Source: Escherichia coli
GTDB taxonomy: Bacteria > Pseudomonadota > Gammaproteobacteria > Enterobacterales > Enterobacteriaceae
Direction: 5' to 3' (one strand)
DNA: 64,000 nt
NCBI RefSeq assembly: GCF_050920415.1
Contig: NZ_CP169309.1
Position numbers and translations under genes: made by a program. Below the pieces are notes generated by a model, which saw only the letters and a program-made list of their open reading frames with translations, made no database searches and had not been told where the DNA came from. Positions 748 through 62,821 of the stretch are shown here, in pieces. Each line of letters begins with the position of its first letter. Positions within the stretch are counted from its first letter, which is position 1.

Positions 748-2422
<1,675 letters not shown>

Positions 2423-2423
2423 C

Positions 2424-3543
<1,120 letters not shown>

Positions 3544-56137: not shown

Positions 56138-56962
56138 ATGAGCAGCAAGCTTCATGGTCTTGTCTGGGAAGGGTGCGCCTTCACCGGCATGATCTTATCC
56201 AGGGTGGCAGTAATGGCTCGCCTTGCAGACTACAGCAATGACGAAGGTGTGTCATGGCCTGCAGTGGAGACCATTCGTCGTCAGATTGGGGCAAAGAGTG
56301 AATCAACGGTTAAAGCGGCGATAGCGGAACTGGAAAAGAACGGCTGGCTGACGAAGGAGGAGCGTAAGGTCGGTGGGCGTAATGAAAGCAATATCTACCG
56401 CCTTAATGTGGAAAAACTCGAAGCAGCAGCTGAGGCGGCGCGTGAGGCATATAAACCGAAAAGAAAAATTAGCCCGGCAAAAAATGACCCGTTAACAGTT
56501 GACCAGTCAAATATTGCCCCCTCAACGGTTGACCCGTCAAATTTTGATGGATCAACCGTTGGTAAAAAACAGCCGGTTAGGGGGGCGATGGTTGGCCCCG
56601 ATCCGTCAGTATTAAAACCTGATCCGTCAGATAAAAGATCTTTTCGTCCGGAAGCTTCGCAACCGGACCCGCAGACGGCTGAACAGGATTTTTTAACCCG
56701 ACATCCTGATGCGGTTGTGTTTAGTGCAAAAAAACGTCAGTGGGGAACTCAGGAGGATTTGGCATGCGCACAGTGGATCTGGGGGCGAATCGTGAGTCTT
56801 TACGAACAGGCCGCCAGCGATGATGGCGAGATCACCCGACCGAAAGAACCCAACTGGACAGCATGGGCCAATGACGTGCGCATAATGCGGATGCTGGATG
56901 GCAGAACTCACAGACAAATCTGTGAACCGCCCCGGGTTTCCTGGAGAGTGTTTTATCTGTGA
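56138..56962 (+). pseudogene. Phage replication-initiator (O-like, N-terminal winged-HTH) gene, 5' part; interrupted by an IS element after codon 261
   Basis: N-terminus ...AVMARLADYSNDEGVSWPAVETIRRQIGAKSESTVKAAIAELEKNGWL is typical of phage replisome-organiser proteins. The frame ends inside the IS inverted repeat; the original frame resumes at 58235 and stops at 58414. Confidence 0.65.
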
Positions 56963-56964
56963 AC

Positions 56965-57831
56965 TCAGGCTGCCAGATCATTGTTTCCGATGGAAGCATA
57001 ATAAGCTTTTTCTGCTTCTGCCGGAGGAGTATGGCCCAGCCTTCCCAGCAATCGTCGATTGTTATACCAGTCCACCCACGTGAGTGTGGCCAGTTCCACT
57101 TCTGCACGGTTTTTCCAGCTCTTACGGTGTATTACCTCCGCTTTGTAAAGACCATTGATGCTCTCAGCCATCGCGTTGTCATACGAGTCGCCTGTACTCC
57201 CTGTTGATGCCAGCAGTTTTGCTTCTTTTAGTCGCTCCGTATAGGCCAGTGACACATACTGAGAGCCTTTATCGCTGTGATGGATGGTGCCAGACGGACG
57301 ACGGGCCCACAACGCCTGCTCCAGCGCATCCAGCACGAATGTCGTTTCCATAGACGATGAGACCCGCCACCCCACGATGTATCCGGCAAACACATCAATG
57401 ATGAACGCCACATAGACGAAGCCCTGCCATGTGCTGACGTAAGTAAAATCAGCCACCCACAGCTGGTCAGGACGTTCTGCCACGAACTGACGGTTTACGC
57501 GGTCACCTGTGGCAACGGTTTTCCGGCTGACGGTAGTGCGGACCTTTTTACCCCGGAGAACACCGGCAAGTCCCATAACCGCCATGAGGCGCGCCACTGT
57601 ACATCTGGCCACCCTGATTCCTTCCCGTAACAACTGACGCCAGACTTTACGCACACCGTACACCTGATGATTTTCATCGTATACGCGCTGTATCTCTCTC
57701 TTCAGCCAGTCATCGCGCTGCGCACGGGCACTGCGTTTATCAGGATGATGCCGCTGCTGCTGACAATGGTAATACGTTGACGGGGCAATATGCAGTTCAC
57801 TGCATACCGGTCCGACCCCCGTACTGCTCAC
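56965..57831 (-). CDS. IS3-family transposase OrfB (DDE integrase core)
   Basis: DDE core ...LWVADFTYVSTWQGFVYVAFIIDVFAGYIVGW...HHSDKGSQY...DSYDNAMAESINGLYKAE. In this copy the body is in the same frame as orfA rather than the -1 frame. Confidence 0.85.
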   Translation of the reverse strand: MSSTGVGPVCSELHIAPSTYYHCQQQRHHPDKRSARAQRDDWLKREIQRVYDENHQVYGVRKVWRQLLREGIRVARCTVARLMAVMGLAGVLRGKKVRTTVSRKTVATGDRVNRQFVAERPDQLWVADFTYVSTWQGFVYVAFIIDVFAGYIVGWRVSSSMETTFVLDALEQALWARRPSGTIHHSDKGSQYVSLAYTERLKEAKLLASTGSTGDSYDNAMAESINGLYKAEVIHRKSWKNRAEVELATLTWVDWYNNRRLLGRLGHTPPAEAEKAYYASIGNNDLAA

Positions 57832-57852
57832 GCAGCTTATCCAGCAGTGGCA

Positions 57853-58179
57853 TTATTTTTTCCAGAGGCGGTCGAACTCCGCCTTCGCAAAATAAGCGGA
57901 AGCCTGGCGAAGGATATCGTTACTGCGGCGCAGTTCACGATTTTCACGTTCCAGCTCTTTCAGACGCTGACGTTCAGCGGTGGTGAGCCCACCATCACCG
58001 CTCCCGGTATCCCTCTCATGCTGGCGAACCCAGACACGCAGAGTCTCTGGCGTACAGCCAATCTTTGGAGCAATGGAACAAATTGCCGCCCATTGTGAGT
58101 CATATTCGCCCTGACTTTCCAGAACCATACGAACTGCGCGTTGACGGACTTCGGGGGAAAAACGAGTATTTTTAGTCAT
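57853..58179 (-). CDS. IS3-family transposase OrfA (HTH plus leucine zipper), 108 aa
   Basis: [57 protein letters not shown]...; ends WKK-stop at an A-rich run. Confidence 0.85.
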
Positions 58180-58234
58180 CCTGTTTACCTCTTTCTCAGG
58201 AAGTTTAGTCTCCAGGATTTCCGGGGCGGTTCAC

Positions 58235-58877: not shown

Positions 58878-59341
58878 CGAGATTAAAGAGCATTAATACA
58901 TATGTGAATTGACATTTCTGTGGCACAGGGCTAGAACTATTCTCATTGTCAGCGTTGTGCCAGAGTCTGATGTTTGTTGTACATTTGGACGAATAGACGG
59001 CGTTGTTAACTTTAAAAATAACACAGGAACACTTTGAGAAAGTGAACAGGCGTATTTATTTTTTGCTGATGAAGGAGAGTAACTTTAATTTGGGTAATTA
59101 GATTGATAATAGGCCAGACGAAAATAACATTCTGGCACACTTTTGGTCGCTACAGTCATTAGTTAATTTTAAGTGATAAATTTTTATCCATAAGTTAACA
59201 CTAGTGTGTCATCTAGCGAAACCGAATCGCTTTAATCCATAACTTAAAGTTGAATCAGTGGGGTAGCAGTAGGTATGCCGGAACTGATAAACTGTGCAGA
59301 AGGCTAAACATTCATTCACTCGTGAGATAGTAGCATAAATT

Positions 59342-59686
59342 ATGCAAAGAATTATTCCTGATAAAAATTGGTGGGAAAAAGAGCGTATTAATCGTAAAGC
59401 ATCATCAAAATGCCCATATGCTAGTTCATACAGATGTCCTCGGTACTATCAGAGTGTAGTTTTGCTCTCAAGCATCAATATGATAGCTGGTATGGCAACT
59501 AGGAAAGAAAAAGAGTTGGGCGAATTTGGGGAAAGAACTAGTTTCTCATATTTATGTGATGAAGAAGTCCCAACAGTTACTACAAAAGAATATGGCGGCC
59601 TTGCATCAGTTAGTAATTTTTGCCCAGAAATATCATTTAGATATTTACACTATTACGCCGATTATATGTGTAAATATGTTGATTAG
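59342..59686 (+). CDS. Hypothetical Cys-rich small protein (114 aa) in the AT-rich cargo island
   Basis: ORF in AT-rich DNA, 70 bp upstream of the HEPN-like gene on the same strand; several Cys in CP/CD contexts; weak RBS. Confidence 0.35.
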   Translation: MQRIIPDKNWWEKERINRKASSKCPYASSYRCPRYYQSVVLLSSINMIAGMATRKEKELGEFGERTSFSYLCDEEVPTVTTKEYGGLASVSNFCPEISFRYLHYYADYMCKYVD

Positions 59687-59755
59687 ATAGATCAGGATAC
59701 TGGCAGGCGTAGTGCGGAAAAAGATAATTTAGAAAATGATTGGAAATATACATGG

Positions 59756-60208
59756 ATGTCAGTCAATCCTAAATTTTATTTAGATTGCGATGTTTTTGAA
59801 AGTGTCAAAAACTTCAATGAAGAATTGGCTAGTGATTACTTAAAGAGATTGCATCCAAATATCATTCAGCAAATAGATAGAATGAATAATTGCTTGGATA
59901 ATAATGACCCTGCGGGTGCACTGCACGCAGCCTCTAATATTCTAGAAACTATGGCGAAGGAAATCACTCAAAACCCGAATGTGGCAAATGAGTCATTGGG
60001 TGGTTTTTTTAAACAGTTCGAAAAAATGTCAAAATTACCTAAGAATCTTATTGATATTGTTAAAGATATTTATGATTTACGCAACAAACTACCTACTGCT
60101 GGACACGGAAGCTTGAACAGGCCTGAATTAACTATGGTAGAAGCTATAACTATTGCGGCAATGACAAAGGCGATTTTAGAAATTGAATATCGAAGCAAAG
60201 CCATCTAA
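59756..60208 (+). CDS. Abi_C / HEPN-like abortive-infection-type protein (150 aa)
   Basis: C-terminal motif DLRNKLPTAGHGSLNRPE fits the R-N-x(n)-H-G signature of Abi_C/HEPN domains; AT-rich codon usage. Confidence 0.4.
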   Translation: MSVNPKFYLDCDVFESVKNFNEELASDYLKRLHPNIIQQIDRMNNCLDNNDPAGALHAASNILETMAKEITQNPNVANESLGGFFKQFEKMSKLPKNLIDIVKDIYDLRNKLPTAGHGSLNRPELTMVEAITIAAMTKAILEIEYRSKAI

Positions 60209-60702
60209 CAAACATAAATTATGTGGTTCAAATTCCCGCTATACTTCTGTGTTATTGCCGCCAGCGTCTACTTATCGCTGTGAGTTCAACGGGGCGATGA
60301 TGCGTTAGAGATCTCTGAATCGATTGAAGTCTAAGGTTGTCAGGGCTGTAACAGTAGCCCTGTGTCATGAAAGGATTGCATATTAATTAACGAAGAACAG
60401 ACCAATAGCATTGATAGTTGTTTTCAAAAATAGACCAATAACAAACACGACTGGCCATCTCATCGATTTTCGACAGTATGCAGAAATGGGCGGGATCCAC
60501 ACGCAGTACCAGCTTGCTAAGATAAACGAAAAGGAGACTTTAACCAGTCAGTGGCTGCATGCTGATGGTGATCCGCTATGGGCCGTAGATGTTGTTTGAT
60601 GTACGCAGAAAGAGACGACGAAGGGCACTATGCCGAAAACTAAATCGGTTTTAGAGATTAACCGCGCTGGTGAGCTGGAGTGATTGACTTTTAGAACGCC
60701 AG

Positions 60703-60732
60703 AAAGCAAAAACCTCACAATCGAGTGAGGTT
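60703..60732 (-). terminator. Candidate terminator after the kinase-partner operon (AACCTCAC-loop-GTGAGGTT)
   Basis: Perfect 8-bp stem; U-rich flank on the minus strand; lies 15 bp downstream of the 208-aa gene stop. Confidence 0.45.
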
Positions 60733-60746
60733 TTGTTAAGGGCTTA

Positions 60747-61373
60747 CTATTTTTTGGCAATTAGTGCATGCATCGCCATTTCATGACCTTTTCTGCGAAG
60801 TTTTTTCACACGGGGCTTGAGCCTAGTGAAAGAACTTGGGCTAATTGTCGACTCAGCTTCAACTATATCATTGCGGGGAGCACCCGTTTTAGCATCTTCA
60901 TAGCGGATAAGTATTTTAAACGTGCCCTCATCAACTCCGACACCTTGCAAGTGATGAAGTTTAGATGAAACAGCACCGATTAAATAATCATGAATTCCTT
61001 GCAGGCCCGTTTTACCGATTGGTGAATAGGTATGCAACATATTTGCACCTACAGGAAGGAACTGGCGAAAGTCAGGAACATGCATCTTGTTAACTTCAAC
61101 AGAAGTGTATGCTTTCATGTCAAAAGAAACTCCAGGTTTCCGTGCATTGACTTCTAGCCATTGAGGCAAATCGAGAATATATTTGCTCTCAGCAGTTACT
61201 TCCAGTTTCTTCCTAGACGATAATGTCACGTCCATTACCTGAGCCATATCAGCCATAGAAAGCTCAGCGGCCTTCCGGTTGATGGCTTGTACCCGCTCGC
61301 TCACGTTAGGTCCGAATGCATCGAACAACGAAATTTCAGCAGCTGGTTTAATGGCTTCAGTTTTAACAGACAT
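60747..61373 (-). CDS. Hypothetical protein (208 aa), translationally coupled partner of the P-loop kinase
   Basis: AAGGAG Shine-Dalgarno 5-6 nt upstream of ATG 61371-61373, directly after the kinase stop; no family recognised (track ORF starts at GTG 61379). Confidence 0.5.
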   Translation of the reverse strand: MSVKTEAIKPAAEISLFDAFGPNVSERVQAINRKAAELSMADMAQVMDVTLSSRKKLEVTAESKYILDLPQWLEVNARKPGVSFDMKAYTSVEVNKMHVPDFRQFLPVGANMLHTYSPIGKTGLQGIHDYLIGAVSSKLHHLQGVGVDEGTFKILIRYEDAKTGAPRNDIVEAESTISPSSFTRLKPRVKKLRRKGHEMAMHALIAKK

Positions 61374-61398
61374 ATACACTCCTTAGATAGGACACTTA

Positions 61399-62097
61399 TT
61401 ATACACCTAAATGCGCTAGATCGCTAACGTCTGAATATGGGCAGCTATGGGAGGTAGTCCAGTTTTCAAGGGTCACGTTAGGAGTATAGTCGACCACGAA
61501 CTGACCATCATTTTCAGGATCTTCCCGTCGATGATAAACATTGAGTGTAAATAGGCCTGCATATTTCGCGAGCATATGTTCAATGGTCTCTCTGCTCTTG
61601 AAAAAGTTCGCTTTAAGAACCTCTAACGGAACCTTACGAGAGCGGGCTTGGGCAAAAACCCACGCGTAAGCCGGATCAAAATAGACGTAATTCAGTGCTA
61701 CCTGATAACCAGCCTTCAGGGCCAGATCAAAGTTTCTCTCCGCAATACCTATACTGGAGAAAGTAGAGTCCATAACAATGGGATAGCCTTCAGATAGCGC
61801 TTTTTTGTAGATAAAATCGACCATTCTGGAGGCAGGTCTCTGATAGTCCACAGAGTTCTCTTCATTGTAGTAGGGGAACCACCAGCGAAAATCATCAGCA
61901 TCAATTCGAACAATGTTTGTGATGCCATGTTGTTCTAAAAGACGATTTAAGAGCTCGGTTTTACCTGCAGCAGGCGAACCAGCCATAAACAGGACGTGCT
62001 TGGCATTGGCATTTTTGTTTGCTGTTACGTAACTATAAACGTAAGGGCGAATTGCCTCACCAAACTCAGGCAGTATGGTTTCAAGTTCTTTTTTCAT
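61399..62097 (-). CDS. P-loop kinase of the zeta-toxin / polynucleotide-kinase superfamily (232 aa)
   Basis: Walker A MAGSPAAGKTEL followed by IVRIDADDFR (compare zeta toxin GGQPGSGKTS...VIVIDNDTFK and T4 Pnk GCPGSGKST...NRDDYR), then IVMDSTFSS and ALKAGYQVALNYVYFDP. Confidence 0.55.
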   Translation of the reverse strand: MKKELETILPEFGEAIRPYVYSYVTANKNANAKHVLFMAGSPAAGKTELLNRLLEQHGITNIVRIDADDFRWWFPYYNEENSVDYQRPASRMVDFIYKKALSEGYPIVMDSTFSSIGIAERNFDLALKAGYQVALNYVYFDPAYAWVFAQARSRKVPLEVLKANFFKSRETIEHMLAKYAGLFTLNVYHRREDPENDGQFVVDYTPNVTLENWTTSHSCPYSDVSDLAHLGV

Positions 62098-62261
62098 CGG
62101 TAAATCATGCCGTGGTAGTTTTAGTTTTATTTAACAATATCATAAACGTTTAAAGATGGTTACAAATTAGCTAGATTTGTGAGCGCTTTAACCTCTAAAA
62201 CCCTCTGGAACCCAATACCGCTTTTCTGGCTGTCTTTTCAATACGGCATCCAGCGCATCAC

Positions 62262-62600
62262 TTACTCGGTCTGTATGCGGTTCATTGCTGAAGTCGCCAG
62301 TTGCGGGTAAATCTGCATCTCTGCGCCGTTTAAGATTCGCGTATTTACGCGCAAGCGCTCGATGGCTTCATTTTGCTGGTGGCTTTCCTTCCTCGCGGCT
62401 ATTCTAGCTATCTGATTGGCTGCTATGGCCTTTGCCGCTGTCATGGAATGCGCCAGAGTCTTATCCGTCATCATTACACGCTGCGTTTCCAGCATGCTGG
62501 AATGATCTCTTTTTGTTGTTCTTGAAGAAGAACTCTTATTCTTCGGTATATCATTTTGACAGGGGGCAGTGTAAGTATCCCTGCAAAACGAACCATTCAC
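62262..62600 (-). CDS. Hypothetical small protein (77-112 aa), upstream of the kinase operon
   Basis: ORF with possible internal start MLETQRVMMTDKTLAHSMTAAKAIAANQIARIAARKE...; helical and basic; 164 bp upstream of the kinase gene. Confidence 0.3.
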   Translation of the reverse strand: MNGSFCRDTYTAPCQNDIPKNKSSSSRTTKRDHSSMLETQRVMMTDKTLAHSMTAAKAIAANQIARIAARKESHQQNEAIERLRVNTRILNGAEMQIYPQLATSAMNRIQTE

Positions 62601-62821
62601 TTTAACAGATATGTCAATTTCCGCTCATCGTTCAAAGCGGACTAGAAGGTTAGCTTGCGTCGGACTTGGCGTTTTTAAAGAAGTGCTGGTGGTGACTGGT
62701 TGTTGTGTTCCATTTCTACAGAACAAAATCACAGAAACTATTCCCAATAGTTTTATTGAATCAATGATGAGACAGCCTCATATTTATCAGGACTGGTGTA
62801 CGTCCAATACAGGAGGTTGTC

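Follow-up and report, generated by a model that had tools for sequence, protein, structure and literature searches.

The window analyzed here is a stretch of 64,000 nucleotides (nt) of Escherichia coli DNA (RefSeq assembly GCF_050920415.1, contig NZ_CP169309.1) that represents a lambdoid, Rac/Qin-like prophage. Between its DUF977 gene and hokD it carries a cassette of two genes, a zeta-toxin-family P-loop kinase and, directly downstream of it, a protein without family assignment that we call the partner (Table 1). On balance, and with reservations that are set out below, we favor reading this pair as a toxin-first, type II-like cassette, in which the kinase would be the toxin and the partner would represent a new antitoxin family acting through an N-terminal motif, and which would be carried as abortive-infection or addiction cargo. 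As judged from the sequences, the novelty would lie in the proposed antitoxin family, in the absence from the kinase of the motif for binding UDP-N-acetylglucosamine (UNAG), and in the grafting of the partner's motif onto phage proteins; the kinase family itself is familiar.

Both open reading frames (ORFs) are genuine genes and not chance ORFs, because their order and a spacer of 25–26 nt recur in more than 12 distinct contexts, and because the kinase is under strong purifying selection (ratio of nonsynonymous to synonymous substitution rates, dN/dS, 0.03–0.08). The original prediction, made from the letters alone, had proposed an operon at positions 60,747–62,097 in which the kinase comes first, has no antitoxin gene immediately upstream, and is joined to its partner by a ribosome-binding site (RBS), possibly in an undescribed pairing, and this outline has held up well. 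Both ORFs are present, on the minus strand, which had been left unstated. The TAA stop of the kinase is followed by a 25-nt spacer with AAGGAG and then by the ATG of the partner, for which an alternative GTG start would give 210 amino acids (aa). In every recovered locus of the subfamily, with kinase identities from 55 to 100%, the partner follows 25–26 nt downstream with a conserved RBS, and the partner gene is all that the kinase neighborhoods have in common; no ORF upstream of the kinase is shared across the other loci. RefSeq labels the two products "zeta toxin family protein" and "hypothetical protein", and we did not find the pairing described in the literature on zeta toxins with phage defense or abortive infection, GTXR or PF06414. 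A 2023 survey of PezT/zeta homologs tabulated upstream neighbors only (PMC10532202). A 77-aa ORF annotated by RefSeq 164 nt upstream of the kinase (WP_000894818.1) was considered as an antitoxin and rejected: it corresponds to frameshifted residues ~160–279 of RepL, accompanies the pair only in the seven E. coli genomes mentioned next, and is absent upstream of the kinase elsewhere.

Of 5426 complete E. coli genomes, only seven contain the same 1.65 kb at an identity of at least 99.8%, and the cassette occurs in 4 of 100,044 species genomes, on nine IMG/VR contigs and, in PLSDB, as two close and five distant plasmid copies. Among 50,697 genomes of cultured phages, none has a member of the kinase subfamily. 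The settings comprise plasmids with RepL, Rep3, ParA, ParG or SopB genes, prophages, IMG/VR contigs, an integrase island in Pectobacterium carotovorum and, in Enterobacter, a place next to a DprA-like gene; in Pectobacterium brasiliense and Pantoea, the cassette is inserted on its own between housekeeping genes. A second group, subfamily B (kinase identity 34–40%), resides on Kosakonia and Enterobacter plasmids with its layout unchanged: a 248-aa kinase with the segments FTAGAPACGKSE, HIDPDQFR and HDTNFAHE, a spacer of 28–29 nt, and a partner of 209–217 aa with a divergent motif, KSLRDLFGDNLT..GKADLERAGELAAQDL (KSLRDLFGDNLT...AGELAAQDL). The most distant relative retrieved was a kinase of 33% identity (P0059) on metagenome contigs (L017–L019). 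Downstream of it, with an overlap of 8 nt at the kinase stop, lies a highly basic 54-aa ORF without the motif; in one of these contigs, an AAA_21/RloB (OLD-like) pair is its neighbor.

With respect to the kinase itself, a Pfam search of the kind that had been suggested with the prediction returned the Zeta_toxin family PF06414 at E 9.3e-29 (residues 28–181) and AAA_33 at E 3.7e-12, and a profile of the kinase family found PezT (1.3e-12), zeta (4.6e-8) and Pnkp1 (4xrp, 4.6e-7) in the PDB. The kinase part of the AlphaFold model reaches a predicted local distance difference test score (pLDDT) of 88–98, and the suggested fold search gave zeta (1gvn/3q8x, E 3e-9) and PezT (2p5t) as the top Foldseek matches, within a range of 3e-9 to 4e-8, with PFK-2, AvrRxo1, PSTK and polynucleotide kinases including that of Clostridium at lower ranks. 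The Walker A and Asp-rich segments that had been read from the translation are GSPAAGKT at residues 40–47 and RIDADDFR at residues 64–71. K46 of the former and D66 of the latter, which aligns to PezT D66/zeta D67, are invariant in 26 homologs, as are D68, D69, T112, R152, R154 and R169. The aligned Asp of zeta and PezT is the catalytic base (PMC3062530). Since the Walker A Lys and the catalytic Asp are invariant, the kinase is, as far as its sequence tells, a catalytically competent zeta-family enzyme.

It is, however, not to be filed as a UNAG kinase, and this label of the prediction is not to be taken for granted, because the GTXR motif is absent. GTXR binds UNAG (PMC6362051), and in zeta it lies within G117–T121, with R120 touching the UDP phosphates (PMC3062530). 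All homologs carry D-S-T-F-[SA]-S instead (here D110–S115): the retained Thr is the one that contacts the beta-phosphate, and the Arg that contacts the UDP phosphates has become Ser or Ala. The kinase has a single domain and, unlike EzeT, carries no antitoxin domain in cis at its N-terminus, nor any other additional domain there.

The signals for translation differ between the two genes. The partner has a consensus Shine-Dalgarno sequence and the kinase has none, and tiny upstream ORFs in the kinase leader end in stops that overlap the kinase ATG (ATGA). These leader features are also present in L003, L006, L009, L011 and L027–L030, and the leader is fused in frame in L009, L011 and P0034, which yields kinases of 249–253 aa starting with M[SR]YVT.... 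The arrangement of leader ORFs may serve translational coupling or the attenuation of toxin synthesis. Given the strong RBS of the partner, the lack of one for the kinase and the leader ORFs, an excess of partner over kinase is to be expected.

The partner gives no match in Pfam, NCBIfam, PHROGs, PADLOC or the PDB, neither with single sequences nor with profiles, such that the earlier statement that it cannot be placed in any family still stands. Its family is tiny, with 23 clusters in 5.8 billion proteins and, by profile search, 38 representatives in 1.84 billion proteins, one of them an artefact; P0088 (1596 aa, nine matched stretches) was discarded as the spurious translation of a repeat. 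The aligned homologs have a total length of 191–266 aa and fall into three regions. The N-terminal motif of ~35 aa, with the consensus [ST]L-x-[DE]-x-FGP[ND]-x-[ST]-x9-AA-x2-SM-x-[DE]-M, is nearly invariant; it is followed by the variable middle and by a C-terminal region that consists of a helix and a beta-hairpin (L..L..VGVD.R...V.I.Y.DP.TG) and then a basic tail with AKK at its end. Across loci, identity is 74–88% for the kinase and 32–59% for the partner, whose first ~48 residues are nonetheless nearly invariant. The dN/dS of the partner is 0.06–0.4 at the N-terminus, where dS is unusually low, 0.4–1.2 in the middle and 0.2–0.4 at the C-terminus. For the same locus pairs, dS in the first 48 codons (61230–61373) is 0.07–0.4 versus 0.6–1.1 in the kinase and the rest of the partner. 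The low dS could stem either from a swapping of the variable middle by recombination or from a constraint at the nucleotide level. A beta-clamp-binding motif, for which SLFDAFG was compared with the consensus, was dropped as a candidate, since the segment has no Gln and carries Asp at position 4.

We propose that the N-terminal ~35 aa of the partner are probably the element that binds and neutralizes the kinase. When the partner is modeled alone, AlphaFold returns a pLDDT of 50 overall, too low for a fold search, and of 53–61 for residues 1–50. When it is fused to the kinase by a linker (predicted template modeling score, pTM, 0.61), residues 19–48 rise to 91–96, a docking that is read solely from pLDDT and from a deeper alignment than that used for the partner alone (70 rows versus 23). 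Residues 129–168 reach 80–89 in the fusion, and the values for middle and tail remain under 50, for the middle also when modeled alone. Furthermore, there are partners of 56–62 aa with little beyond the motif (P0078, P0091, P0092, P0093), which are mutually distinct and have consistent ends; they appear to be paired with the kinases P0035–37 (~66% identity to the E. coli kinase, motifs intact), a pairing deduced only from the identical lengths of their contigs. The partner P0076 has lost its middle region. In Pluralibacter, a 58-aa form of the partner stands behind an intact kinase, which we count only as weak evidence that the motif suffices: it is a single recent lineage with less than 1% divergence, and one of its members shows decay in the form of a nonsense codon.

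The motif also occurs outside the cassette. A profile built from kinase-linked partners only retrieved small proteins with the motif and no other part of the partner, at whole-library E values of 1e-9 to 1e-4. The carriers are found among small ORFs arrayed in one direction, and the available flanks contain no kinase. The remainder of P0087 resembles a protein of 95 aa from Klebsiella phages of the T5-like Sugarlandvirus, that of P0090 resembles gp7, which is encoded in the early region of Moo19, an N4-like Shigella virus (Moovirus), and P0086 and the protein of L050 resemble a 152–172-aa protein of Stephanstirmvirinae Klebsiella phages. The cultured-phage homologs of all three scaffolds are without the motif, which therefore has been grafted on or inserted. 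The Stephanstirmvirinae-like proteins bear the motif twice in tandem, and so do P0085 and P0083. For the L050 protein and P0085, one copy (the first in the Stephanstirmvirinae-like proteins) is 53–61% identical to the subfamily B motif and the other 44–50% identical to that of subfamily A; the tandem of P0083 shows a weaker split (39% to B, 50% to A). A strict DNA-pattern scan for the motif found eight contigs in IMG/VR, all of them kinase-bearing, and seven loci in metagenomes, of which only L050 is without a kinase.

The simplest reading of these phage proteins is that they are antitoxin mimics that would hold one or both kinases off during infection, and if this is the case, the cassette would harm phages. 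Lytic phages are known to carry antitoxin surrogates, as with Dmd of T4 against RnlA/LsoA and with phage pseudo-ToxI. The situation here would be alike in that a lytic phage carries a surrogate of a host antitoxin against a toxin of the toxin-antitoxin type, but differs in that the putative surrogate is a module of ~35 aa grafted into early proteins of several families.

The mechanism that we envisage is as follows. The kinase would be an active, ATP-dependent zeta-family enzyme that is poorly translated, owing to its leader ORFs and missing Shine-Dalgarno sequence, and that most likely phosphorylates an essential small metabolite, which need not be UNAG. The strongly translated partner would hold it inactive by folding its helix-forming N-terminal motif onto it, and the middle of the partner, its C-terminal hairpin and its basic tail would be accessory, with possible functions in regulation, stability or sensing. 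The cassette of this prophage would most plausibly be an abortive-infection module, and that of plasmids an addiction module, and some lytic Enterobacterales phages would use the grafted motif in their early proteins to keep the kinase off. A bolder version, which we put forward tentatively, is that this constitutes an undescribed kinase-based abortive infection whose portable ~35-aa module was captured repeatedly by lytic phages of at least three families as a modular counter-defense, including a tandem for two subfamilies, and that the variable middle of the partner may be an infection sensor.

Several points speak against a toxin-antitoxin cassette with a role in defense, in addition to the limits of the fusion model and of the short partners given above. 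The replacement of GTXR and the loss of the Arg for the UDP phosphates (PMC3062530, PMC6362051) mean that the established toxic chemistry is not to be taken for granted, and possibly the kinase does no harm. With 208 aa and without a recognizable DNA-binding domain, the partner is big for an antitoxin. Upstream of the kinase, the minus strand yielded no call for a promoter with the sigma-70 consensus. PADLOC-DB v2.0 gave best matches of E 0.04–0.06 for the kinase and none for the partner, and no cultured phage was found to carry the motif.

Among known systems, epsilon/zeta and PezAT (Streptococcus; 1gvn, 3q8x, 2p5t) share with the cassette the Zeta_toxin family, the fold, the Walker A Lys, the loop I-D-x-D-x-F-[RK] with its catalytic Asp, an acidic residue aligned to zeta E100 and a Thr aligned to T118. 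Both are cargo of mobile elements, and here, too, the antitoxin would presumably bind the kinase directly and so block it. In contrast to them, the cassette is kinase-first and has no epsilon/PezA homolog, its partner being unrelated and two to three times longer; GTXR is absent with its Arg turned into Ser/Ala, the score against the NCBIfam PezT equivalog is 39.6 bits with a cut-off of 470, and the hosts belong to the Enterobacterales.

The closest precedent for the kinase-first order is AvrRxo1:Arc1 (Xanthomonas and relatives; 4z8q–4z8v), a zeta-family toxin-antitoxin pair with a downstream antitoxin (PMC4938570). This system is likewise rare, horizontally moved and of a G+C content below that of its host, and the substrate of AvrRxo1 is NAD and not UNAG. 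However, the kinase described here is nearer to zeta/PezT (Foldseek 3e-9 versus 7e-6) and has no part for type III secretion. Arc1 measures 81–121 aa and carries KExFD(x25-27)[YL]ExxYY, a motif that on inspection is absent from the partner, and no Arc1 chain was found when the partner and motif profiles were run against the PDB at E<=10. A further case is ng_epsilon1 of a Neisseria gonorrhoeae plasmid, a zeta antitoxin that is non-homologous to epsilon (PMC5923241). It resembles the present pair in that the toxin, ng_zeta1, is a proteobacterial zeta toxin of altered substrate specificity around which the antitoxin wraps in an extended manner; it differs in that the antitoxin is encoded upstream and the toxin has 401 aa, and ng_zeta1 was not retrieved by the kinase profile at E<=0.01.

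The best-surviving alternative, which we nevertheless regard as rather unlikely, is that the same toxin-antitoxin pair is a purely selfish addiction module of plasmids and islands without a role in phage defense, the phage use of the motif being unrelated. Many copies indeed lie beside replication and partition genes (RepL, Rep3, ParA/ParG, SopB) on plasmids, the classic epsilon/zeta is a plasmid-maintenance system (title of entry 1gvn), and the PADLOC negative fits as well. Moreover, the E. coli copy has the look of a plasmid fragment, flanked as it is by debris of RepL and an integrase. Yet its slot is a genuine hotspot for cargo and defense: the DUF977–hokD interval is variable across thousands of E. 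coli prophages and holds, in other E. coli genomes, AIPR, DUF262, DUF4209, KwaB-like, sce7726 and other genes, among them recognized defense genes, and an Abi_C-like gene adjoins the cassette here. Likewise, where the cassette stands alone in the chromosomes of Pectobacterium and Pantoea, there is nothing for it to stabilize, and independent grafts into three unrelated early-protein scaffolds of lytic phages, together with the tandem, are difficult to account for unless phages and cassette interact.

The roles of the two proteins could also be reversed in a type VII-like manner, with the kinase as an antitoxin or regulator that phosphorylates the partner (e.g., at Ser39 or Ser15) and the partner as effector or toxin, or as a substrate whose phosphorylation would be the output. 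Kinase antitoxins exist, e.g., TakA/TglT. The genes would then stand in the canonical order, with the antitoxin first, and low translation of the kinase with high translation of the partner would suit a catalytic modifier. Ser39 of the motif is invariant, Ser15 and Ser25 are nearly so, and the association of motif and kinase in the AlphaFold model would equally be expected of a substrate. We nonetheless find this improbable: 40% of the partner is near-neutral, and is deleted or absent in lineages with an intact kinase, unlike what an active-site effector would show, and a phage that titrates a protective kinase would damage itself. Furthermore, characterized zeta-family enzymes phosphorylate small molecules, namely UDP-sugars and NAD (PMC3062530, PMC5923241, PMC4938570).

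Very doubtful, finally, is a non-toxic kinase of the polynucleotide kinase (PNK)/Pnkp type for RNA repair or nucleotide salvage that serves the mobile element, with the partner as scaffold or specificity subunit: secondary matches to PHROG 505 (polynucleotide kinase, E 1.3e-4), Pnkp1 and the Clostridium PNK and the missing GTXR are in its favor, but zeta/PezT are best by sequence and fold with E values more than 100-fold better, neither the kinase nor its conserved neighbors have a phosphatase, ligase or Hen1 domain, the cassette sits on plasmids and in solitary insertions and not in phage RNA-repair clusters, and cultured phages lack the kinase subfamily. Of the dual zeta/PNK assignment made at the outset, the zeta part stood, and the PNK part, with the accompanying idea of an anti-defense RNA-repair module, has little to back it.

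The toxin-antitoxin reading of the cassette matters because, outside the Gram-positive UNAG kinases, the partners, substrates and roles of zeta toxins are mostly uncharacterized. If it is correct, the partner would be the third type of antitoxin for zeta-type kinases, non-homologous to the other two, and its minimal motif would comprise ~35 aa; a zeta-type kinase without the UNAG motif would probably have a new toxic phosphorylation target in Enterobacterales. The kinase cassette and the phage proteins with the grafted motif would form a candidate pair of defense and counter-defense, and the shuffling of short antitoxin modules into unrelated phage proteins would offer a search strategy for anti-defense genes.

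Table 1. Features of the cassette and its surroundings (positions refer to the window unless another locus or plasmid is named)
Feature	Position	Strand	Basis or remarks
Zeta-toxin-family P-loop kinase, 232 aa	61399..62097	-	ORF, Pfam, fold
Kinase residue map			Walker A G40-T47 (K46); catalytic-loop D66/D68/D69; MDSTFSS 109-115; R152/R154/R169 invariant
Partner protein, 208 aa, no family match	60747..61373	-	ORF
Partner N-terminal motif, residues 14-46	61236..61334	-	Alignments, AlphaFold, short partners, phage grafts
Partner middle, residues 49-128, hypervariable in sequence and length	60990..61229	-	Alignment, dN/dS, pLDDT
Partner C-terminal region, residues 129-208, moderately conserved	60750..60989	-	Alignment, pLDDT, dN/dS
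Partner RBS AAGGAG, 5 nt before ATG	61379..61384	-	Spacer length and sequence conserved across loci
Terminator-like hairpin, 10-bp stem, 13 nt past partner stop	60709..60734	-	
Kinase leader/promoter region, conserved	62098..62205	-	
RepL remnant, frameshifted 3' half (Phage_P1_RepL)	62224..62585	-	Includes 77-aa ORF
Pseudogene of ~134-aa signal-peptide protein	60411..60683	+	5'-truncated, in-frame TGA 60597-60599
Integrase fragment, 77 bp	60295-60371		92-95% identity to site-specific integrase genes, ~600 E. coli genomes
orf114 (no family) then orf150 (Abi_C/HEPN-like), separate pair	59342-60208	+	Same island
IS3-family element	56927-58233		orfA 57853-58179 (-), orfB 56965-57831 (-)
Subfamily B cassette, L059	Kosakonia plasmid pKrDSM107547 1750-3179		Beside integrase and HEPN/Toprim-associated gene
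Subfamily B cassette, L060	Enterobacter kobei IncFIB plasmid 1744-3148		
Motif-bearing phage-like proteins	L050 2191-2841; L034 4001-4396; L036 1562-1951; L038 4001-4318; L054 765-1070		

The island that holds the cassette extends over ~58,880–62,620, and the segment of the pair has a G+C content of 36–45% versus ~50% elsewhere in the window, in agreement with its description as AT-rich prophage cargo. The E. coli cassette has the appearance of a fragment captured from a RepL replicon, because it is flanked by the RepL remnant, the pseudogene of a secreted protein and the integrase fragment. The RepL remnant is debris at the flank that moved together with the cassette. Intact RepL genes occupy the equivalent position beside the cassette on plasmids, and the ~134-aa secreted protein, which ends in ...TKSTLEKIRAGELD, adjoins the cassette on plasmid and viral contigs (L003, L011, L012, L027–L030). 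As judged from its identity to integrase genes, the 77-bp fragment marks a mosaic junction within the island.

The same island harbors a second unit, orf114–orf150. Its orf150 matches Abi_C (PF14355) in Pfam at E 1.6e-4 and, weakly, HEPN regions from AbiJ, Csm6 and Cas13a. Of the 16 E. coli genomes that contain orf114–orf150, 9 are without the zeta pair, which makes this unit a candidate for an independent defense module. Outside the island, the IS3-family element interrupts a helix-turn-helix gene of the prophage replication region that is intact in strain MFDS1022581 (L001 8853–9815), and this copy of the prophage may therefore be replication-defective.

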